A DNA stretch of 64,000 bases, taken from positions 1-64,000 of IMG/VR virus record IMGVR_UViG_3300003860_000007; one strand, written 5' to 3'. Position 1 is the stretch's first letter. Every line of letters starts with the position of its first letter. Positions 2,746 through 25,764 of the stretch are shown here, one piece after another. The stretch comes from a virus. Both the position numbers and the translations under genes were made by a program. Below the pieces are notes generated by a model. It was given only the letters and a program-made list of their open reading frames with translations. It did no database searches and was not told the origin of the DNA.

Positions 2746-2946
2746 TTATTCTTCTTTTATATAAGCGTTTTTTACTTTAACGTTTTTCTTTACAGCATTT
2801 ATAAACTGCCATGGATTTTCAATTCCATAAATTTCTTTTCTATAATTATTATCATATATTATGACTACACAATATGTAACAGGTTTAAGAGGCACATACC
2901 CATTAAAAAAGGATTTTGGATTATATGATTTAAAAAAATCACTCAT
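2746..2946 (-). CDS. Hypothetical small protein
   Basis: ORF track only. Confidence 0.3.
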   Translation of the reverse strand: MSDFFKSYNPKSFFNGYVPLKPVTYCVVIIYDNNYRKEIYGIENPWQFINAVKKNVKVKNAYIKEE

Positions 2947-3284
2947 TTATGTACTTTAAATCCTTTATCTTTTAGTAGTGCTTGTATACCAGATCTATAC
3001 CAACTAAACGCAGTTTGAGGATTACCTTTAACTGTAATATATTTTGTAATAAAATCTCCTATTTTTTGATCATATTTATGAGGAAACCAGTTATCAGCAG
3101 ATCTTATTATATCTTCAGGAATTTCACGTGTTTCTAAGATTTGATGTAAATGATCTACTATCCATTTATCTAATTCTAACCAAGTATTAAAATCGCGATG
3201 TACATAAAGTCCAATTCCCATATCTTCTATAGGATCCGATTCTTCTTTAAATACTTCATTTATATTTTCTCTAACTAATTTCAT
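2943..3284 (-). CDS. Member of conserved-N-terminal-module paralog family
   Basis: N-terminus MKLVRENINEVFKEESDPIEDMGIG. Confidence 0.6.
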   Translation of the reverse strand: MKLVRENINEVFKEESDPIEDMGIGLYVHRDFNTWLELDKWIVDHLHQILETREIPEDIIRSADNWFPHKYDQKIGDFITKYITVKGNPQTAFSWYRSGIQALLKDKGFKVHK

Positions 3285-4105
3285 TCGTAAAAAGGCATTT
3301 TAACTTTACAAATCTTTCTAATTTTCGCTTCAGTAATTCCATAATGCATAGACATACAAACAGTTCCATCTATTCTTTTTGGAAATCCTTTTAATGATCT
3401 TATATCGTTATCTGATGCATTAAAATCTTCTTTTACATATTCAGGAAATCCTATGCATGATTGTATAGTTCCTGGAACACAAAAATTTCCATACACATGG
3501 TGAAATTTAATATATTCAGGAAGTTTTTTATATTTTGGATAAGTATTTCTAACACAATATAAATTTACTTGACCTTGTACTGTAATGCTTAAATCTTTAT
3601 TTATAGTATAATCAATAATATTCATTTCTTTAAGCCAATCTTTAATCTTTTTAATGATTCCTATACCCATGTCTTGAATAGGATCAGTATCTTCAGCAAA
3701 TTTTTCATTAACTGATTCATTTATTTTTAATACATCAAAATATTCGTCCCAAACTTCTATAGGGGCAGATCCATATGTATAATAATATCCTCCCGAATCT
3801 ATATACCTTCTTGCTGTTATAGCGTTCTGCACATTATCTCCAAAATTAATTATTACTAAACTTAAAATATTTTTTTCTTTGTTTACTTCTTTAACTATAC
3901 TAGTATTGCCTTTACGAATTCTTGCGGTGACCTTTTCAATATTTTCGTCAAAAATAATATCATTGTTTTTTTGATATAAATCTTGTTTAACTATAATTAT
4001 ATCTCCTTTCTTTATTCTCGTAAATTTAGATCCAATACCTAAATCCCATATGGGATCAGTTCCTTGTTCAAATTTTTCATTTATATGTTCTTTTACTATT
4101 TTCAT
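3281..4105 (-). CDS. Member of conserved-N-terminal-module family (module present twice)
   Basis: N-terminal MKIVKEHINEKFEQGTDPIWDLGIG plus an internal second copy INESVNEKFAEDTDPIQDMGIG near aa 130. Confidence 0.6.
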   Translation of the reverse strand: MKIVKEHINEKFEQGTDPIWDLGIGSKFTRIKKGDIIIVKQDLYQKNNDIIFDENIEKVTARIRKGNTSIVKEVNKEKNILSLVIINFGDNVQNAITARRYIDSGGYYYTYGSAPIEVWDEYFDVLKINESVNEKFAEDTDPIQDMGIGIIKKIKDWLKEMNIIDYTINKDLSITVQGQVNLYCVRNTYPKYKKLPEYIKFHHVYGNFCVPGTIQSCIGFPEYVKEDFNASDNDIRSLKGFPKRIDGTVCMSMHYGITEAKIRKICKVKMPFYE

Positions 4106-4129
4106 ATATTCTATTTATCTAACAAAACA

Positions 4130-4159
4130 AAAGGCCAAGATTATAAAACCTTGGCCTTT
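4130..4159. terminator. Hairpin terminator-like (AAAGGCCAAG-loop-CTTGGCCTTT)
   Basis: Perfect 10-bp inverted repeat directly after gene 3281..4105. Confidence 0.5.
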
Positions 4160-4395
4160 CAATATCGTCTGAGAAAAATTAGGAAGCGTGTTTTTATAAG
4201 TTGTCTCTTATGCTCTAACCTACTTATCAATCTGTCCTGTACGTGATTAAAAGACGCCTAAGACACCGCACCTTCGGGAATTACGGCCCTTTCGGGAAAA
4301 TTGATGTTCAGAATCAAGAGCGCTGTCATAGTTTGAATTTATCTAGGTTGCCGAAATCCATCAGCTGGGTTTTAACTATGTTGCCATAGAAAAAA

Positions 4396-4426
4396 GGTTT
4401 CGAAGTACCGCTTGACCTTACTACAG
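4396..4426. repeat. Dispersed R repeat copy (GGTTTCGAAGTAcC-N-CCTTACTACAG)
   Basis: ggtttcgaagtaccgcttgaccttactacag. Confidence 0.5.
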
Positions 4427-4642
4427 ATGTTGTTTAAAATATAACTGAGAATTGTTGTTTTGTGCGTTTTAAGGAATTATCTTTCCGAAAATCGTTGCGG
4501 TGATTTTCAATACCGTGCTGTGTTGTGTAGGCCGAAGCCGCAAACCTTGAGCGTTATTTAACTGATTTAATTGGCATTGCTGCCGATCAATAGTATGACT
4601 CTTTCGAGCCAGAAGTTGCCGAGGCAACGTTTTGTTGGTTTC

Positions 4643-4674
4643 GAAGTATCACAAAAACTTCACTACAGTTTTAT
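4643..4674. repeat. Dispersed R repeat copy
   Basis: ggtttcgaagtatcacaaaaacttcactacag. Confidence 0.5.
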
Positions 4675-4785
4675 TATTAAAAATTTTAAAGAACTTTTAT
4701 ATACTATATATGGATTTAAAAAGTATTAGTTTTATAACTTAATGCATTTATTTCATTAATATATAAAATAAAAGTAGTAAGTTTT

Positions 4786-5361
4786 ATGATTAAAGAAGAA
4801 AAACATCATTATGTATATTTAACTACTAATCTTATCAATGGTAAACAATATATTGGTGATAGAACATGTAAATGTAATCCTGAAAATGATAAGTATTTAG
4901 GAAGTGGCAGACCATATTTTCAAAATGCTATTAAAGAATATGGAAAAAATAATTTTAGCAAACAAATACTTGAATGTTTTAATACAAGAGAAGAAGCTTT
5001 TAATGCCCAAGAAAAATATATTATACAATATAATACGCTTATTCCTAATGGATATAATATAAGTCCTAAAGGTGGCCATAATGTTAAAGAATGTTGGAGC
5101 AAAGAATCTAAAGAAAAATGCAGTAACACTAAAAAAGGAAAAATTGGATATTGGAAAAATAAAAAATTATCAGAAGAACATATTAAACATTTAAAAGAAA
5201 ATCATAAAGGAATGTTAGGAAAATATCATTCAGATGATTCTAAATTACAACTTAGTAATTCAATGAAAATCAAAAATAACGGAAAAGAAACAGAAGAACA
5301 TAAACAAAAAATAAAATTAAGTATGCAAAATTATTGGGCAAAAAAGAAATTAGTGCATTAA
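4786..5361 (+). CDS. GIY-YIG homing endonuclease with C-terminal NUMOD-like DNA-binding repeats
   Basis: HYVYLTTNLINGKQYIGD is a GIY...YIG motif. The C-terminal K/H-rich repeats GKIGYWKNKKLSEEHIKHLKENHKG match the Seg/I-TevI architecture. Confidence 0.85.
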   Translation: MIKEEKHHYVYLTTNLINGKQYIGDRTCKCNPENDKYLGSGRPYFQNAIKEYGKNNFSKQILECFNTREEAFNAQEKYIIQYNTLIPNGYNISPKGGHNVKECWSKESKEKCSNTKKGKIGYWKNKKLSEEHIKHLKENHKGMLGKYHSDDSKLQLSNSMKIKNNGKETEEHKQKIKLSMQNYWAKKKLVH

Positions 5362-5579: not shown

Positions 5580-6755
5580 TTATTTTATATTAAGTTGATA
5601 TTTACAAAATTCTATCATTTTTTCATCTCCTGTATGTTTTCCTTCTGAATCAGACAATTTAATACAAGGTACCCATTCATCGTCAGGATCAGGTTTTGCT
5701 GCAATTAGTTTAATAACCATATTAAGTGGGTTAACTCCAACATCATTAGATAAATTTGTGCCTATTCCCATTGCGCATTTAATTTCTTTATTACATGATT
5801 TTGTTAATTCAATTGCAAGATCAGGATTAAGATTATCTGAAAAAATTATAGTTTTATCATTGGGGTCAATTCCCATACTTTGATAATGTTTAATAACTTT
5901 TTCTGCAAAATGAAATGGATTTCCACTATCATGTCTTACACCATCAAAAAGCTTTGAGAATTTTTTTCCAAATGATTTAAAGAATGATTCTGTTGTAAAT
6001 GTATCTGTAAGAGCAATTCCAAGATCACCTTGATAAACATTTGACCAGTTTTCAAGAGCTAAAAAATTTGCTTGTTTAAATCCATATTTTGCAGCATGAA
6101 ACATAAACCATTCATGTGCATGAGTTCCTATTGGAGTAAGATTAAACATATGAGCAAAGTGTACATTAGAAGTTCCATTAAAATTATCTCTCATACTAAA
6201 TGCTAAATCTTCTACAACTTCTTTTTGATTTTCATATGAATATCTTCTACGAGTTCCAAATTCAGAAATCTTAACTCCATGATTATTAAATAATGCAGCT
6301 TTTTTTAGATTATTTTGTTCTCTTTCTACTCTTGAATTTATTTTTTCTCCCGTCATTTTAAAATACAATTCAGATATAAGAGCAAGAAGTGGAACTTCCC
6401 AAAGAATTGTACGATACCAGTAGCCTTCTACAGTTACTTGAAGTTCACTTCCATTTTGTATAACTCCAACTTCTGAAGGATTATATCTATATCCTGCCAA
6501 AAAATCAAAATACGCAGGATCGATATATTTACATTTAGTTTCAAAGAAGTGTTTTTCTGCAGTCAAAAGTTTAAGAGAAGACATATGAGAAATTTGTAAT
6601 CTTAGTTCTTCTGCAAATCCTTCTGGAAAATTTACTTTTGAACGAACTATTAATGCATATTTAACTTTTGCTCTTGGAAAAAGTTTTAACACTGCATTCA
6701 TCATACTAAATTTATAAAGATCGTTATCGAGTATTGATGTAATTATAGGTTCCAT
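5580..6755 (-). CDS. pncB: Nicotinate phosphoribosyltransferase (PncB-like); probable start at internal MEPIITS, ORF track gives 5580..6794
   Basis: Motifs DNDLYKFSM, EFGTRRR, GTSNVHFA, PIGTHAHEW, GVRHDSGNP and GIGTNL follow PncB/NAPRTase order. The start is trimmed to the Met adjacent to the upstream stop. Confidence 0.75.
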   Translation of the reverse strand: MEPIITSILDNDLYKFSMMNAVLKLFPRAKVKYALIVRSKVNFPEGFAEELRLQISHMSSLKLLTAEKHFFETKCKYIDPAYFDFLAGYRYNPSEVGVIQNGSELQVTVEGYWYRTILWEVPLLALISELYFKMTGEKINSRVEREQNNLKKAALFNNHGVKISEFGTRRRYSYENQKEVVEDLAFSMRDNFNGTSNVHFAHMFNLTPIGTHAHEWFMFHAAKYGFKQANFLALENWSNVYQGDLGIALTDTFTTESFFKSFGKKFSKLFDGVRHDSGNPFHFAEKVIKHYQSMGIDPNDKTIIFSDNLNPDLAIELTKSCNKEIKCAMGIGTNLSNDVGVNPLNMVIKLIAAKPDPDDEWVPCIKLSDSEGKHTGDEKMIEFCKYQLNIK

Positions 6756-6756
6756 T

Positions 6757-7224
6757 TTATATTTTTTTAGCATGAAAATAAGTGACTCCATCAATTTCTG
6801 TCATATCAAGAATTTTAAATTGATATGCACTAAATAATGCTGTTACAATTCTTGGTGTTAACGATCTATCAATTTTATTATCTAATAAATTAAATATAAC
6901 ATCTATAAGCTTTCCATATAATATATGAGTTTTTAAACTCAACATAGGTTTACTTGCTATAAATTTTCCATATACATAAGTATTCTTTTTTAAAAGATTA
7001 TTAAAATCTTTAATAGTATCGTCTAAATATTTAATTTCATTTAATTTTTTAAGATGAACAAGCGTTTTAATTCCTTTTAGTTCATCTTTATCATAGAAAT
7101 AAAAATGTTTTCCCGAAAGAAATAAAACTTTTTCATCTTTAACTTTTTTATGTTTTTGCACATATGCATGCATAACATGATCATATGTTTCATCTTTATA
7201 TTGAATATCATTAAAACTTTTCAT
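6757..7224 (-). CDS. Hypothetical protein
   Basis: ORF track only. Confidence 0.35.
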   Translation of the reverse strand: MKSFNDIQYKDETYDHVMHAYVQKHKKVKDEKVLFLSGKHFYFYDKDELKGIKTLVHLKKLNEIKYLDDTIKDFNNLLKKNTYVYGKFIASKPMLSLKTHILYGKLIDVIFNLLDNKIDRSLTPRIVTALFSAYQFKILDMTEIDGVTYFHAKKI

Positions 7225-7226
7225 TA

Positions 7227-7592
7227 TTATCTTATTCTAAATGTATCAAAAAATGTTCTAAACGATAGTCTTTTTTTCAAAATTATTGTTTCAGATACGT
7301 ATTGAGTATCATTTTCATAATATTTTGTTCCTTTAGGAATTATGAATTTAAATACAGTTAAGTAAGAATGAGCATCATCTGCCGCAATTTTAAAACTTTT
7401 ATATGAATGATAGCCTATGTTAATAGAAACTTGATCATAATAAAAAGTAGCATCAAATTCTACTTTTTTATTTAAAAGATTTTTAGTATATTGAAAATCT
7501 GTAAACCAAGATATTCCTCTTCTAGTCATAGTTTTATAACAAACTATATCTTTTTTTGCTGTTTTAAGAACATTTTTTCCAGTAAAACACAT
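7227..7592 (-). CDS. Hypothetical protein
   Basis: ORF track only. Confidence 0.35.
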   Translation of the reverse strand: MCFTGKNVLKTAKKDIVCYKTMTRRGISWFTDFQYTKNLLNKKVEFDATFYYDQVSINIGYHSYKSFKIAADDAHSYLTVFKFIIPKGTKYYENDTQYVSETIILKKRLSFRTFFDTFRIR

Positions 7593-7603
7593 ATTTTTAA
7601 TTT

Positions 7604-8508
7604 TTAAAAGATTAGACTTCCTTCATCATCCCAACGACAATATAATTTACTATTTTCTCTTAAGATAACATATTTAAGAGATTCGTTATTGCCTTTAGAC
7701 ATACAATCATCATCAATAACAACTGACATTCCATTTATAGAATAAACTTTTGCACCAAACGGAAGAGTATAAAGAAATTCACCATTTCCCGCCTTTTTAG
7801 GAAACATTCTCTCAGTTCCTATATATGCATTTTCTCCTGTAATATATTTCTTAATAGCACTTATAGTTTCGTCTTTACATGCATTTTCTTTAACCCATTC
7901 ACCTTCGTCATTTATAATAAATCCATCTTTATCTAACTCATAATATATTTTTCTAAAAGTAACTTGATTTGCACCAAGAAATTTACATCTAGCTATAATT
8001 TCTTTTGGAGTATGATTATCATATTCTTTTAACATATTAAGACTTAAACGAATATTAAATCCTCGTGATTTAAGTAAAGAAATTAATTCTGATAAGTTAA
8101 ATTTTAATTTTTTAGAAACTCCAATTATATTTAAATTATTTTCATCAGAAAAAATATCAGCAACAGAAAGACTTATCGTATTTACTTGAAGTTTTTGTAA
8201 TAATCAATATTATCATCATCTAATAATACTCCAGTAGTTTGTAACTCAACATTAGGAAATGGATAATTTAAATCTTTAAATAAAACAGATAAAACTTTTA
8301 AGAAATTTGTATTTTGCAAAGCTTCTCCTGTTCCTGTAAGAATACAAGTATTTACTCCATTCATTACAGCATACTTAATACGTTTTTCTATTTGAATATA
8401 CATAAAAGTATCTTCATATGGAGAATCATGCATTCTACTTACACAAAATGGACATTTATTTACACAACTTTTTGTAGGAACTACGATAGAAATTGTCTAA
8501 ATGTTCAT
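7604..8508 (-). CDS. Radical-SAM activase-like protein (PflA/NrdG-like), disrupted: in-frame TAG at codon 4 and a +1 frame change near 8185-8203
   Basis: Minus strand reads ATG AAC ATT TAG then ...TISIVVPTKSCVNKCPFCVSRMHDSPY... with a CxxxCxxC cluster. ILTGTGEALQNTNF resembles the GGEA/P motif of glycyl-radical activating enzymes. ORF 8182..8433 ends in TAA. The reading frame of ORF 7604..8035 is open upstream to 8203 (LLQKLQVNTISLSVADIF...). Confidence 0.5.
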
Positions 8509-8523
8509 ATATTAATTATTATT

Positions 8524-8564
8524 GTGTAAATATAATACTAATTTCTGAATTAAAAAAATATTTT
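8524..8564 (-). promoter_or_regulatory. Copy of conserved promoter-like motif
   Basis: gtgtaaatataatactaatttctgaattaaaaaaatatttt, just 5' of the radical-SAM gene start. Confidence 0.45.
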
Positions 8565-8574
8565 GCTATTTATT

Positions 8575-9225
8575 TTAAATATTTCCTATAAAAGAAAGTG
8601 TAAGAGAATCTACATAATAAACTTTAGCTTGTGTAAAAGCTTCTATAGTTTCTGACAAATCTGAATTTATTGATTTACACGCATCTTCAATAACATATGT
8701 ATTAAAACCTTCCATTGCTGCATCTATTGCAGTTTCTTTCACACAATAATCTAGAGCTAAACCACATACGTAAACTTCAACTACATTTCTTTCATTAAGA
8801 AAATCTTGAAGTTTTTTAGGAGCATCTGGATTTATTATTTTTGATCTATCAAATGCACTATAAACATGATTATTCCTTTCCATGCCTTTTTTAAAGATAT
8901 AAAAATCTTTTTTGCATTTTGATAAATTCAGATCTGGATGAAATGAAGCACCTAATGTATCTGCTACACAATGATCAGGCCAAAGAATATCTTTTTCTCC
9001 ATTTTCTCTTACGTAACTATCGTAAACAGAAGCTCCGGGATGTTGTGAGGCGAAAGCATCCATTTCTGGATCATGCCAATCTTGTGTAAATATAACTAAA
9101 TCAAATCTTTCAAGGAGATCATTAACTACGGGTACAATTTTGTCTCCATCTGGTACTGCTAGTGATCCTCCAGGGCAAAAATCTCTTTGCAAATCGATCA
9201 CTATTAATGCTTTTTTCTTTATCAT
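8575..9225 (-). CDS. pncA: Nicotinamidase / isochorismatase-family hydrolase (PncA-like)
   Basis: IVIDLQRDFCPGGSLAV and the later Cys-containing segment match the PncA/isochorismatase fold signature. Confidence 0.75.
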   Translation of the reverse strand: MIKKKALIVIDLQRDFCPGGSLAVPDGDKIVPVVNDLLERFDLVIFTQDWHDPEMDAFASQHPGASVYDSYVRENGEKDILWPDHCVADTLGASFHPDLNLSKCKKDFYIFKKGMERNNHVYSAFDRSKIINPDAPKKLQDFLNERNVVEVYVCGLALDYCVKETAIDAAMEGFNTYVIEDACKSINSDLSETIEAFTQAKVYYVDSLTLSFIGNI

Positions 9226-9381
9226 ATCATCTTATAGTTTGAATTTCATATTCATCATATCCATCTCTTGATTCATCTGAATCTATACATACAATTTCTA
9301 ATCCAAATGATTGTAAAGCGTCTGATATATTGTCTACAATTTCATCAGCTCTATCATCATAATCTACTCTAAATTTTGATT

Positions 9382-10317
9382 TCATAATTCTTCCTTTTTA
9401 TTTTTAACATATCTATTGTATATACTATTTTCATTTTCTATTATATCGTGTCTATATATATTGACAGGATTATTTCTTTTGAATTGAGATTTTAAATGTC
9501 GTTGAATGACAGAGTGTTGACGCATTTTATTAATTTCATCCATATATACTGCATTAACAGTTGGTGAATGTTTTTCAATAAAGTCTAAATATTCTTTAAG
9601 TATTCTATCAACTTCTTTATAACCATCTCTAGAATTTCCTGTCCAGTCTGGCATTATTTGTCCAAGATCTCCAAGATTTGTAACTCCAAGGCCATCAGTT
9701 GCAAGTGCAGTTATCGTATTTATTATTGTACTTCCTGCTTCATAATTTCCAGCATATTCATTCATAGTTAACCATTCTGCCATATCATATACTTCTGTTT
9801 TCCAAAGATTTTGTATCATACCATAATCACCTACATCACCATGAAGAGTCCAAAAACCAAGAAGAAATTCTGTATAATTATCAGTAGAAAGAACTATTCC
9901 ACGATGATATGAAGCTAAATCATACAAATAAATCATACGCAGTCTTGCTTTAAGATTTCCATTACGTATACGACTTGATGAACCTTCAGGATTAGGCGCA
10001 TGAAACAGCATATTAGATTCCATTTTGGAATACATAAAATTATATTCTTCTTCAACGCTATGCTCTAAGAATTTTGTACAAAATACTTTTCCTGTTAATT
10101 TGGCTCTTTCTAATTCTTCTGGTTGATTTGAACTTACTGGCAAACTTCTTCCTATAAGTGGAATATTTAATTCATCACAAACTGGTCTAGCAAGTGCTGC
10201 GCAAAGACAACTATCTATTCCACCTGAAATCCCTATAATAAGAGACTTTATATTATTGTTTGTAATATACAGACTTAATTCTTTTCGAATATTCGATACT
10301 GCTATTTGATAATTCAT
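9382..10317 (-). CDS. nadE: NH3-dependent NAD+ synthetase (NadE)
   Basis: PP-loop IGISGGIDSCL (SGGxDS); overall length and layout match NadE. Confidence 0.8.
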   Translation of the reverse strand: MNYQIAVSNIRKELSLYITNNNIKSLIIGISGGIDSCLCAALARPVCDELNIPLIGRSLPVSSNQPEELERAKLTGKVFCTKFLEHSVEEEYNFMYSKMESNMLFHAPNPEGSSSRIRNGNLKARLRMIYLYDLASYHRGIVLSTDNYTEFLLGFWTLHGDVGDYGMIQNLWKTEVYDMAEWLTMNEYAGNYEAGSTIINTITALATDGLGVTNLGDLGQIMPDWTGNSRDGYKEVDRILKEYLDFIEKHSPTVNAVYMDEINKMRQHSVIQRHLKSQFKRNNPVNIYRHDIIENENSIYNRYVKNKKEEL

Positions 10318-11090: not shown

Positions 11091-11338
11091 TTGAATTCTG
11101 CTTCTAAATTTCTTAAATGTTCATTAGTATATTCGTATTCTATTTTATCTTCATAATCATAAAGATATATTTTATCTTTACATACTTTTGTTATTTTACA
11201 CTTAAAATTTTTCCAAGAATAACAATTATATAAATTATCTACAACTCCTGACCAATTATATTTTTTACCTTCAACTAGTTGAAAACCATCATGAGTTACA
11301 AATATCTTTTTGGGTTTTTTCTTAAATGGATTTTTCAT
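11087..11338 (-). CDS. Hypothetical protein
   Basis: ORF track only. Confidence 0.3.
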   Translation of the reverse strand: MKNPFKKKPKKIFVTHDGFQLVEGKKYNWSGVVDNLYNCYSWKNFKCKITKVCKDKIYLYDYEDKIEYEYTNEHLRNLEAEFK

Positions 11339-11538: not shown

Positions 11539-11656
11539 ATTGTTATTTGTTTATTATAATGCTAATATATAAAAAATATGAATACGATGTGATTTTTTGT
11601 TGTTAATTTTTTGTTAAAAAAGCAAAAGGGAGAATTTCTTCTCCCTTTCTATTCTA

Positions 11657-13360
11657 TTAGATTTCAATCTTGTTGATTTCATCTATGATTACCTGTGGGT
11701 TTATTTCAACCTGAGGAATCTTTTCGTAGATGTCTTGACCGTAGCCGTAAAGACGGAATACTCTGTTTCCACCCTTTATAGGAGCAGTTGCTGCATATCC
11801 GCATACGTTGATGATGTATACGTATGGTGTTCCGAACTTCTTGCAGTATCCTGCATAAGAATTTTCTACATTGCTGTATCCATCCTGTTCGTCAGAGATG
11901 ATAAGAATTCTATCGTACTGCTTGTTAGTTCTTTCAAACAACTTGAAGCAAGAACCGAAATCTGTACCGTGACCGCAACATCCGTTGTAGGACATGAACT
12001 TCTGCTTTAACGTATTGATTGAATCGATTGGGTTCCAACCTACAATCTGTTCAGCAGTAGAAGCGAAATGGTATACATCTCCACCAACACCCTTTGCAAA
12101 TGTTGCAGCTACAAGTGCAGCCTTGTCAGCTGGCTTCTTATTGATAGCCTTCTTAGGGTCACCATTAAGATAAATGCTGGAGTATCCACCTTTCATAGAA
12201 CCTGATGTATCGAATACAACTGCTGTTCTACCTTCTGGAAGCAAGTTCTGAAGGTTTGGAATTGACAATTCATATGCTGTTGAAAGTGCCTTTGCAACCT
12301 TAGCCAACTGTGTTCCGTTGAATTCAAGTGTCATCACTTCAAGAGCAATGTCAATCTGGTGTGGCCATACAAGAGACTTACGGATGAATTCCTTTTCAAC
12401 AAGTAAATCGCACGCCTTGTCAAGAAGAACAGTATCATTGGTCTTAAGAATGTTACGTACGTTACGAAGTAATGCAAGGTACCCAATCTTCTTAGTTTCA
12501 ATAAGTTCCTTGTAGTTTTCAGTCTTAGCTTCATTAAGTTCAACAGTTGCCTGTTCCTTAGTGATAGTTCCAGCCTTAACCTTTTCAGCTACAACCTTTC
12601 CTGCTTCAGTATTCTTATCTTCAACAGTGTTGAACTGCTTAAGAACGCCAAGAACAAGAGCCTTAAGAGTTGGAAGACCAACATTACCATTTTCAGGTGC
12701 ATCTAAAAGATATTCATCCTTTTCGAACTTAGTACCCTTAACAGCCTTCAAGTATTCAGCTTCTGATACAAATACTGTTCCATTTATAGGTGTTTCATGT
12801 GGGTGCACTAAGTTAACGATGTCAACAAGGCTTACACCACGTGACTTCATCTGGTACTTAGCTAACTGATATGCATCTGCATGTTCAATTGCATCCTTGA
12901 ATCCCTTCTTAATAGCGTTTGGAATTGGTGCTTCTACACCATTCTTAGCCTGGTAACATGCAAGAATTTCTGCCATGTCATCAAGACGATAAACGATACC
13001 TCCACGATTTTCCTTACGGTCTCTCTTAGAGAAGAATCTCTTAGCGATTTCAGAACCTGCAAGGTGAGGGATTAATTCTACTGCACCGTAATGAGTAACA
13101 GAACGCTGTCCAAATACTGTACGTGCATAGATAAGTGCCTTAGCTGCGAATAATGCATTCTTCTGCGCAACTCTATTGATAACTTCACGGAATCTCTTTT
13201 CACGTTCAGTTTCCTTTTCGTAATAAGTATTATCTAAACCAGTAGATAAAATACCAATTAATTCATGTTCTGGCTTCTGTGTTAAACCAGTTCCACCCTG
13301 TAAAGTTACAGTTTCCTTAACTTCTGGGTTGCTTACTCTCTTTTCATTGTACTTTGACAT
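11657..13360 (-). CDS. Ro60/Rsr-like TROVE-domain protein with C-terminal vWA/MIDAS domain
   Basis: N-terminal region (TGLDNTYY..., ALFAAKALIYARTVFGQRS) parallels the Ro60 TROVE region. C-terminal VVFDTSGSM is a DxSxS MIDAS motif. The gene is visibly more GC-rich than its neighbours and is preceded by AAAGGAGGT. Confidence 0.6.
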   Translation of the reverse strand: MSKYNEKRVSNPEVKETVTLQGGTGLTQKPEHELIGILSTGLDNTYYEKETEREKRFREVINRVAQKNALFAAKALIYARTVFGQRSVTHYGAVELIPHLAGSEIAKRFFSKRDRKENRGGIVYRLDDMAEILACYQAKNGVEAPIPNAIKKGFKDAIEHADAYQLAKYQMKSRGVSLVDIVNLVHPHETPINGTVFVSEAEYLKAVKGTKFEKDEYLLDAPENGNVGLPTLKALVLGVLKQFNTVEDKNTEAGKVVAEKVKAGTITKEQATVELNEAKTENYKELIETKKIGYLALLRNVRNILKTNDTVLLDKACDLLVEKEFIRKSLVWPHQIDIALEVMTLEFNGTQLAKVAKALSTAYELSIPNLQNLLPEGRTAVVFDTSGSMKGGYSSIYLNGDPKKAINKKPADKAALVAATFAKGVGGDVYHFASTAEQIVGWNPIDSINTLKQKFMSYNGCCGHGTDFGSCFKLFERTNKQYDRILIISDEQDGYSNVENSYAGYCKKFGTPYVYIINVCGYAATAPIKGGNRVFRLYGYGQDIYEKIPQVEINPQVIIDEINKIEI

Positions 13361-13693: not shown

Positions 13694-13784
13694 GCAATAT
13701 AATCATAAAGTTCAAGTTATGAGCTATGCAAATAAAAGTTGAGAAATCTGAGAAGAGTTTAAATTGAAAATTCTAATAAAGATC

Positions 13785-13813
13785 GTTCGATGTAACTCTT
13801 TCTCTTACTACAA
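13785..13813. repeat. Dispersed R repeat copy
   Basis: gttcgatgtaactctttctcttactacaa. Confidence 0.45.
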
Positions 13814-13913
13814 TCAATTATATTATTATATATAAAGTCAAAAACTCTTTGTTTTTAGACTTAGTGTTAAAATTTTGTTAAAGATTTATTTATTAAAATT
13901 ATAGTGTAAATAT

Positions 13914-25105: not shown

Positions 25106-25764
25106 TTTATATTAAATATTTTTTCATAATTTTGAATATCTGATAAAAATATCATTTCAATATTATTATAATTACTCAAAATATATCTCATTTTCTTTTT
25201 ATCTTCTTCTTCATATCTTCCTTTAACTTCAAAGAACTTTTTTAAATTTGGACACCAAAAATCTGGATAATATGTGTGAATTTCCCCGAATTCATTTGTC
25301 CAAGATAAACCATCAGAAAAAGGCTTTATCCAATCTTTATCTATAATATTTAAAATAACTGCGAAACGTTTTTCATAGGTTCCTTGTACTTTTATCTTTG
25401 TTCCATCAGGTTTTATAATTTCATACCATTTACATTTTCCGCCAGTTATCCATCCTTTATTATTTATAGATATTTTTCTTTTTGTTTCTAAATCTCTTGG
25501 ACCATTTTTTCTTCCTTTCAATTTAGAAGGTCTTCCTTTTTTAGTATCCCAAACTCTATTTTCAGAATGAATAGCCCAAATATGAAATTTTACGCCTCTA
25601 GGATTATCATATTCTTTTTCACATATTGGACATTTATGAAAACCATTAGGTTGTTTATAAATATTAACTTTATTTTGTCTATTACCACATTTTTCATAAT
25701 GTTTCTTAAAATTTGATAAACTTATTTCTTTATTACATTTATCACAAATTCTTTTATTTACCAT
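25099..25764 (-). CDS. Zinc-finger + PD-(D/E)xK-fold nuclease-like protein; paralog of the truncated gene at 1..647
   Basis: CDKCNKEIS...KKHYEKCG, CPICEKEY...HIWAIH, C-terminal YYPDFWCPNLKKFFEVKG; sits inside the tRNA cluster. Confidence 0.5.
   Translation of the reverse strand: MVNKRICDKCNKEISLSNFKKHYEKCGNRQNKVNIYKQPNGFHKCPICEKEYDNPRGVKFHIWAIHSENRVWDTKKGRPSKLKGRKNGPRDLETKRKISINNKGWITGGKCKWYEIIKPDGTKIKVQGTYEKRFAVILNIIDKDWIKPFSDGLSWTNEFGEIHTYYPDFWCPNLKKFFEVKGRYEEEDKKKMRYILSNYNNIEMIFLSDIQNYEKIFNIKL

Follow-up and report, generated by a model that had tools for sequence, protein, structure and literature searches.

The G+C-rich gap beside a GIY-YIG gene in this viral DNA encodes two tandem structured RNAs on the minus strand, with one upstream box and one intrinsic terminator. 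The module that closes each of them defines a widespread phage RNA family with interchangeable cargo, and the family is linked, on the same strand, to genes for Ro60 (TROVE) proteins. The R-module RNAs, as we call this family, are previously undescribed and have no match in Rfam 15. Positions below are those of the window, the whole stretch of 64,000 nt that was analysed, which is part of a 378-kb AT-rich megaphage contig.

A preliminary description made from the letters of the DNA had placed a G+C-rich, non-coding block with GNRA- and UUCG-capped hairpins at 4250-4700, and computation bears this out. The G+C content there is 38.6%, compared to 28.9±4.5% over all 506-nt segments of the 64-kb window. 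Over 4166-4671, which takes in both RNA units, it is 39.9%. Just 3.5% of the 506-nt segments are equally G+C-rich, namely the TROVE gene, the main tRNA cluster, and collagen-like repeats. The gap at 4106-4785 holds no ORF of at least 80 aa, and the shorter ORFs within it are mechanical. Read on the minus strand, the block carries hairpin caps GCAA (twice), GAAA (twice), and C(UUCG)G. The block as first drawn stops short of the terminator (4121-4159) and also of 4166-4249, which makes up the last third of unit 2. The features of the locus, in RNA sense after the neighbouring gene, are:

4786-5361, plus strand: free-standing GIY-YIG homing endonuclease gene, SegE-like with NUMOD3 (Pfam)
4686-4694, minus strand: upstream box GTTCTTTAA, putatively promoter-like, 13 nt before unit 1
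4441-4671, minus strand: unit 1 RNA, about 230 nt, from RNAalifold and covariation
4642-4670, minus strand: R-motif copy 1, the 5′ half of the unit 1 closing module
4670-4666/4447-4443, minus strand: unit 1 P1, AACUG/CAGUU
4665, minus strand: unit 1 bulged U
4664-4663/4449-4448, minus strand: unit 1 AG/CU step
4655-4650/4464-4459, minus strand: unit 1 P2
4650-4642, minus strand: unit 1 GAUACUUCG
Unit 1 cargo: hairpins with CUCG, GAAA, GCAA, and UUCG caps
4486-4473, minus strand: unit 1 hairpin GGAA-AGAUAA-UUCC
4166-4429, minus strand: unit 2 RNA, about 260 nt, from alignment A3 of nine lineages
4401-4427, minus strand: R-motif copy 2, the 5′ half of the unit 2 closing module (R-repeat 4396-4407 on the plus strand)
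4427-4424/4171-4168, minus strand: unit 2 P1, UCUG/CAGA, then AG/CU
4417-4409/4188-4181, minus strand: unit 2 P2, with GGUACUUCG
4323-4318/4217-4212, minus strand: unit 2 long-range helix enclosing the core
4296-4287, minus strand: unit 2 GNRA hairpin CCC-GAAA-GGG
4236-4286, minus strand: unit 2 near-invariant core, a bulged hairpin CCGUA-auu-CC-CGAA-GG-UGCGG, then CUUAGGCGUCUUUUAAUCACGUACAGG
4211-4196, minus strand: unit 2 AGACAA-loop hairpin
Unit 2, before the 3′ strand of P2: A-rich AAAAAC
4121-4159, minus strand: intrinsic terminator, a 15-bp hairpin then UUUUGUUUUGUU, just before the minus-strand ORF 3281-4105

The order in RNA sense, box GTTCTTTRA, unit 1, unit 2, terminator, is collinear in all homologous blocks. 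GTTCTTTRA or a near variant lies 0-20 nt 5′ of the first unit in most lineages (the window, L015, L098, L118, L082, L047, L094, and L106), with the box reading GTTCTTTT in the L010 clade. The same box precedes other minus-strand RNA genes in the window, at 21631, 25237, and 26145. A terminator scan found four intrinsic terminators where 0.6 were expected, and every relative has a hairpin and a U-run of differing sequence at the corresponding position. The two units are separable genes, because in L047 a homologue of unit 1 stands by itself, between a box and a terminator of its own. The R-repeat reported earlier is real, with exact copies at 4396-4407 and 4637-4648, the latter being on the plus strand the 3′ part of R-motif copy 1. 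The copies do not flank the block, one being at the RNA 5′ end and one mid-block, because each opens a separate RNA unit. The sequence AAUUCUCAGUU, considered as a promoter element of unit 2, was rejected; it is the 3′ half of the unit 1 closing module.

To find relatives of the block we used the adjacent NAPRTase gene as a handle, which led to a first relative of 376 kb (L010). That stretch has a single gap free of genes, and in it nhmmer finds the block on the gene-sense strand at E = 9e-25. The unit 2 core region is 83% identical to that of L010 over 107 nt, compared to just 66% for the neighbouring NAPRTase proteins. Exact-pattern scans with invariant pieces recovered L013/L015, L023, L024, and L026, and a degenerate R-motif pattern recovered L066/L119, L046, L098, L118, and L082/L101. 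Homologous blocks are thus present in about 10 other megaphage lineages (L010, L015, L023, L024, L026, L066/L119, L046, L098, L118, and L082/L101), and the genes flanking them vary. The exact R-motif pattern (CTGTAGT...TACTTCGAAACC) and the first core pattern were too specific and had no match in IMG/VR. The neighbouring 274-aa ORF gave distant paralogues only, and among deposited phages there was no BLAST match to the block or to the first 20 kb. The unit 2 core is almost identical in L015, L023, L024, L026, and L066. In L046 the core hairpin is swapped for a different self-complementary sequence in the same place.

Covariation among these lineages is strong. For unit 1, in 11 lineages, the unguided RNAalifold prediction comprises P1, the AG/CU step, P2, and internal helices. 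Its alignment has 98.6% of the cells paired; shuffling the columns gives about 85%, and sliding the partners gives 37-52%. Double compensatory changes occur at 14 pairs, a number matched in none of 500 shuffles. In unit 2 the paired cells amount to 97.9% (32-52% in the slid controls) with 13 pairs doubly compensated, again matched in 0 of 500 shuffles. The supported helices of unit 2 are P2, the long-range helix around the core, a GCGY/RCGU hairpin, and the AGACAA-loop hairpin. Its P1 is CUG/CAG in the window and CCG/CGG in all others, and in the GNRA hairpin that precedes the core the stem varies compensatorily among CCC/GGG, CUUC/GAAG, and CCUC/GAGG. Therefore units 1 and 2 are real structured RNAs. 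They are read from the minus strand, because many of the covarying pairs are G-U and would be C-A on the plus strand. The earlier suggestion of an independent non-coding RNA was right in kind, with the amendment that there are two RNAs and that they lie on the strand opposite the GIY-YIG gene.

The GIY-YIG gene had been the starting point for two other readings of the block. Its strand is plus and both neighbours of the block are minus-strand genes, as first described. The block is immediately 5′ to the gene, as a structured plus-strand 5′ leader regulating the endonuclease would be. The opposite strand carries the structure with its G-U pairs, though; folded against its own shuffles, the minus strand has a z of −2.34, whereas the plus strand folds no better than the shuffles (z = +0.10). 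The block is also conserved where no GIY-YIG gene follows. No such gene is near it in L010, L046, L098, L118, and L082, and in L023, L024, and L119 the gene is on the other side. We consider a leader highly improbable.

GIY-YIG genes often reside in group I introns of T4-like phages, and the block could on that ground be an orphaned group I intron or ribozyme core brought in by the endonuclease. Like the T4 td intron with I-TevI, it is a structured, G+C-rich RNA beside a GIY-YIG gene in a large AT-rich phage. In L015 a truncated GIY-YIG copy (an N-terminal fragment) even replaces the 5′ part of unit 2 in the same orientation. Unlike the td intron, the block has no exons and no intron core, and it is on the strand opposite the endonuclease gene. 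Neither the window block nor its L010 counterpart matches a group I or II intron model at E≤10. The flanking genes vary, with no same-strand exons conserved among them, and box and terminator belong to the block itself. Each unit is shut by its own covarying terminal helix, and the same kind of closing helix is common to RNAs of 62-150 nt, too short for introns. With the GIY-YIG gene varying in position and orientation and absent beside several homologous blocks, an intron origin has almost nothing to recommend it. The gene is an incidental mobile neighbour and not a functional part of the RNA element. Free-standing homing endonucleases typically settle beside conserved sequence, and related GIY-YIG copies also adjoin TROVE genes.

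The repeat GGTTTCGAAGTA occurs exactly at 4396-4407, 4637-4648, and 24912-24923 in the window, and the extended R-motif has three copies there compared to 0.00 expected. It is the 5′ half of a closing module of the form P1-U-AG-UrA-P2-GWUACUUCG...cargo...P2′-UU-CU-P1′. P1 is a helix of the RNA 5′ and 3′ ends, followed by a bulged U, the 2-bp AG/CU step, and an internal loop of UrA opposite UU. P2 comes next and then the invariant GWUACUUCG, with the cargo between the P2 strands. Across lineages the pentamer before UAGU and the one after UUCU covary (AACUG/CAGUU, AAGUG/CACUU, and UUCUG/CAGAA). All fetched loci together have 158 R-like sites. For 33 of these, an exact UCU joined to the reverse complement of the site's own pentamer lies within 30-450 nt; with the pentamer reversed as a control, this is so for none. 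When G-U pairs are allowed, the count rises to 76 units from 51 loci, in which P1 occurs as 35 different pentamers, every one with its complement. The P2 helix is unit-specific, as it averages 5.70 bp with its own partner and 4.80±0.13 bp with permuted partners. Variants with U-GG...CC replace U-AG...CU compensatorily. About a dozen R-pattern matches look coding (L070, L104, L105, L107, L108, L126, L141, and others) and were taken as chance.

RNAs defined by this module range from 62 to 310 nt. The short members (62-150 nt) show the minimal architecture, with P1, the bulged U, AG, UrA, the 5′ strand of P2, GWUACUUCG, and cargo, and on the 3′ side an A-rich stretch, the 3′ strand of P2, UU, CU, and the 3′ strand of P1. 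An assignment of the R-motif to a tRNA (U8-A9 plus D-arm) was dropped, the short members showing that the supposed D-loop is the 5′ strand of P2. The window has at least three further small members of the family, listed here with the Ro60 homologue:

25027-25106, minus strand: mini R-unit of 80 nt (25106->25027), P1 AGUUG/CAACU, directly upstream of tRNA-Gln
24873-24944, minus strand: mini R-unit of 72 nt (24944->24873), between tRNA-Gln and a tRNA-like gene
13737-13815, minus strand: small R-type unit (variant UUACAUCG), sharing the strand of the TROVE gene and lying about 380 nt 5′ of it
11657-13360, minus strand: TROVE/Ro60 homologue of 567 aa (Pfam TROVE E 4.7e-9), with a vWA MIDAS-like DTSGS motif

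A terminator hairpin follows the small unit 13815->13737 at about 13692-13650. The tRNA genes of the window, 16 in number, are all on the minus strand.

What lies between the P2 strands differs widely. In several short members (L093, L094:7519, L094:11166, and L124) the cargo is a permuted tRNA mimic of the YrlA kind, built from T-arm, closed acceptor stem-loop, and D-arm. Some short-member cargoes have an encoded CCA and even an anticodon arm, making a near-complete tRNA in normal or permuted order. In another large type (L106, L158, and L162) the first 22-23 nt of the cargo are identical to a segment of 23S rRNA that is universally conserved, which suggests that cargo modules imitate cellular RNAs; the Rfam LSU model has no match on L106. 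The cargo of each large window unit is about 200 nt of conserved structure. It has no recognisable tRNA-like part in unit 1 or unit 2, and neither unit has a blastn match to E. coli RNAs.

As some cargoes are permuted tRNAs, we also considered whether the closing module acts as a small ribozyme. By self-cleavage or self-ligation it would excise the cargo or make it circular, which could mature the permuted tRNAs. Permuted tRNAs of algae mature via circularisation, and the module does place invariant nucleotides (UAGUrA, GWUACUUCG, and UUCU) at a multi-helix junction. Against this, the cargo of many units is trivial and leaves nothing to be released, we found no candidate site of cleavage that is conserved, and the ribozyme models of Rfam have no match even at E≤10. 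A ribozyme is accordingly an improbable account of the module.

The search against known RNAs that the preliminary description had called for returned no family. The raised G+C content and the strong covariation, the other two points on which that description was to be judged, both uphold it. With Rfam 15 at gathering scores over the whole window, none falls in or near the block, and at E≤10 on 4050-4850 and on the L010 block there is again none, with just noise on the terminator hairpin. ARAGORN found no tmRNA, and the covariance models of tmRNA, RNase P RNA, 6S, GOLLD, ROOL, and OLE have no match in the block. Like GOLLD and ROOL, which are large, ornate non-coding RNAs of phages and prophages often near tRNA genes, the window units are large and structured; unlike them, the block has no Rfam match and has a distinct closing module. 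No description of the closing module was found in the literature searched.

Ro60 and Y RNAs form an RNA-surveillance system conserved from bacteria to humans, with Ro60 being a major autoantigen in lupus and Sjögren syndrome. The closest solved structure to the window Ro60 is that of the Thermus phage phiLo Ro60 (9KOP/9L5Y, E 5e-14). We propose the window homologue as the candidate protein partner of the RNAs. In 15 loci that were fetched solely by the R-motif DNA pattern, a TROVE homologue is encoded within the short fetched stretches. All validated units in TROVE-containing loci share the strand of that gene, and many lie 29-370 nt from it (L048, L056, L094, L117, L120, L125, and L139). Loci fetched by TROVE protein similarity served as an independent test set. 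In four of these (L158, L159, L160, and L163), and in the window with 13815->13737, TROVE is preceded at a distance of 200-1000 nt by an R-type unit on its own strand; L125 has an equivalent small unit upstream. The large block is also on the TROVE strand, 7.0 kb downstream of the gene in the window and 7.5 kb in L163. The family adjoins phage Ro60 genes and therefore resembles a new kind of Y RNA. We infer from gene neighbourhood alone that the closing module binds Ro60. Part of the TROVE association could be indirect, because many members sit in tRNA arrays, as TROVE genes tend to.

Bacterial YrlA RNAs (Rfam RF02553) offer the nearest comparison. They are recognised by a position within about 4 kb of rsr on the same strand, a stem of the 5′ and 3′ ends, a GNCGAAN0-1G motif, and a permuted tRNA-like domain made of V, the T-arm, a closed acceptor-like stem-loop, and the D-arm (PMC4201824). 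Like YrlA, R-units are modular, closed by a 5′/3′-end helix with conserved bulged nucleotides and extensive covariation, and are encoded on the strand of a Ro60/TROVE gene, many of them near it; tandem production of two RNAs is possible in both. The Rfam YrlA model aligns full-length to L094:11166-11300, 365 nt downstream of TROVE, with 34.8 bits (E 5e-6) compared to a gathering score of 69, and GWUACUUCG takes the place of GNCGAAN0-1G in that alignment. The hit covers 11179-11296. This is the best score in the family, so that no member reaches the RF02553 gathering threshold of 69 bits; the window has no YrlA match at that threshold, and 4050-4850 has none at E≤10.

The differences from YrlA are several. 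The 5′ motif of the R-module is UAGUrA...GWUACUUCG and not GNCGAAN0-1G, which is the proposed Ro60 contact and is related to GGUCCGA. The latter motif is not enriched in the family, with four sites compared to 2.1±1.5 in shuffles. The R stem leaves at the variable-arm position, and some R-units retain an anticodon arm because of this. The large window units, at 230-260 nt, have non-tRNA cargo and lie beyond the 4-kb YrlA range from TROVE. Although Y RNA- or YrlA-like in working, the R-module family is not filed with YrlA because it fails two of the defining YrlA features.

Phage Ro60 proteins with RNA partners have been described, one of them a precedent for the proposed mechanism. The phiRo60 of Thermus phage phiLo binds two Y-like RNAs encoded upstream of it and recruits the host PNPase (PMC12135203), and some jumbo phages have TROVE proteins "with a tRNA-like partner" (PMC7824862). 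Similar to phiLo, the window pairs a phage Ro60, nearest among solved structures to the phiLo protein, with Y-like RNA genes upstream. The phiLo Yrl1 and Yrl2, unlike the R-units, are small stem-bulge-stem RNAs with a CGAA motif (PMC12135203), and no sequence- or model-level similarity between them and the R-module was established. The vertebrate Y RNAs (hY1, hY3, hY4, and hY5) have a comparable division of labour, with a terminal bulged helix as the Ro60 platform and a variable loop as the effector.

On this evidence the R-module RNAs are probably partners of Ro60 that form a new, Y-RNA-like class with cargo of unusual size; we infer that Ro60 binds them. By analogy with the bulged 5′/3′ stem of Y RNAs, the closing module would be the docking site for the phage Ro60 ring. 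The cargo may then be an effector module that tethers or decoys another RNA-handling factor, as Y RNAs tether PNPase. Units 1 and 2 would probably come from a common precursor that is later split, a route reported for mycobacterial YrlA/YrlB.

Many units abut tRNA genes, and it is also conceivable, if rather unlikely, that the R-module RNAs are products of tRNA islands that act without Ro60. They could be decoys or spare parts against anticodon nucleases, or permuted or split tRNA-like precursors processed by RNase P/Z and a ligase. P1 and P2 would be a processing or stabilising scaffold, and the proximity of TROVE would come from shared RNA-gene islands. The cargo is in places a near-complete tRNA with encoded CCA and anticodon arm, and positions 4-67 of the Rfam tRNA model align with the cargo of L094:11053-11118. 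Against an origin in tRNA islands, units are found directly beside TROVE on the same strand with no tRNA between (L125, L117, L139, L120, and L160), and many members have no tRNA part at all, both window units included. The permuted tRNA-like layout is itself the layout of YrlA and Y RNAs.

A wider version of the Ro60-partner reading is more tentative, and we put it forward as a possibility that may well not hold. The closing module would mark a large, unrecognised Ro60-partner class of jumbo and megaphages, in which swappable cargo aims the Ro60 ring or decoys host factors. If so, the permuted tRNA mimics, the exact 23S rRNA segment, and the domains of about 200 nt in the window would be exchangeable cargoes for different host RNA-processing or translation factors. 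The two window RNAs would then be the largest Y-type RNAs known.

Y RNAs of bacteria and phages are hard to find because they diverge fast. A simple, strongly covarying signature here leads to dozens of phage RNAs that are candidates for the Y type and are missing from Rfam 15, and it suggests that the cargo of Y-type RNAs is larger and far more varied than the known tRNA mimic. The window offers concrete RNAs and a cognate candidate protein in one genome for binding and structural work, with a bearing on how very large phages manipulate host RNA metabolism. The unit 2 core sequence UCCCGAAGGUG presumably resembles GGUCCGAAGGUAG of hY1, a short likeness that sits inside the cargo and not the terminal stem, with no homology by any model. 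G+C-rich islands in AT-rich phage genomes prove here again to be good markers of structured RNA genes.

The large R-module RNAs are phage RNAs closed by a P1/P2 module, and they carry cargo between the P2 strands. In the phage locus L106 the first 22-23 nt of the cargo of one such RNA (AACUAUAACGGUCCUAAGGUAG, L106:10980-11002) match E. coli 23S rRNA with 100% identity, and a CACGAA element comes after them. The large R-module RNAs of L158 and L162 have the same 23S-identical cargo start. The cargo of all three looks like a mimic of rRNA. Two further arrangements occur in relatives:

L158:7880-8100, two small units with a variant 5' motif, directly after the 300-nt R-module RNA
L015:7260-7460 (equivalent to L013:1010-1210), GIY-YIG N-terminal fragment (MKYYVYLTTNLLNGKQYVGER...GSGR) and a hairpin

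The 5' motif of the small L158 units reads UGGUAAG/UGGUGAG...GUUACUUCG, and on their 3' side CC replaces CU. As they follow the 300-nt RNA, up to three family members stand in tandem about 2 kb upstream of a TROVE gene, which encodes the proposed protein partner. The fragment and hairpin in L015 replace the 5' half of unit 2, the second tandem RNA, and the conserved core marks the exact end of the replacement. Upstream, a complete GIY-YIG gene lies on the other strand. This arrangement appears to reflect homing-endonuclease traffic into the RNA gene.

The following features were found in the window, all on the minus strand:

2943-3284 and 3281-4105, ORFs of a multi-copy family of paralogues whose N-terminal motif is repeated
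5580-10317, conserved NAD-salvage module (NAPRTase, NAD synthase), syntenic with L010-L012
13405-13635, cysteine-rich ORF of 76 aa, between the TROVE gene and a small R-type unit with its terminator
18769-18842, tRNA with anticodon CUA, labelled tRNA-Pyl by ARAGORN
21631->21460, GTTCTTTGA box and an RNA candidate, about 150 nt long and without annotation
24868->24790, tRNA-like gene

The paralogous ORFs share the motif INEKF..DPI.DMGIG, present twice in the 274-aa protein. The family had no Pfam match, and related megaphages (L001-L007) encode several copies per genome. The NAD-salvage module was the handle by which relatives were located; in relatives it also includes nicotinamidase/isochorismatase and radical SAM genes.

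The TROVE/Ro60 gene (11621-13307) is the largest G+C-rich island of its kind in the window, with about 40% G+C versus 29% for the window, which could come from recent acquisition or strong compositional constraint.

The CUA anticodon is of the amber suppressor type and may thus point to recoding of TAG in part of this megaphage. If so, ORF calls made with table 11 could be truncated. The tRNA-like gene, called by neither ARAGORN nor Rfam, is directly preceded by a mini R-unit. Its acceptor strands are GCCCUGU/UCAGGGC, its T-arm is canonical (AGUGG-UUCGAAU-CCACU) and its anticodon loop is CUUUGAA (UUG, Gln), but its D region is abnormally long.

The RNA candidate within 21631->21460 does not belong to the R-module RNAs. 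A GTTCTTTGA box lies about 11 nt ahead of it. A stem of 7 bp (AUCGUUA/UAACGAU) closes the candidate, which also contains a hairpin resembling a T-arm (ACAGGGUUUGAUUCCUUGU) and a U-run.
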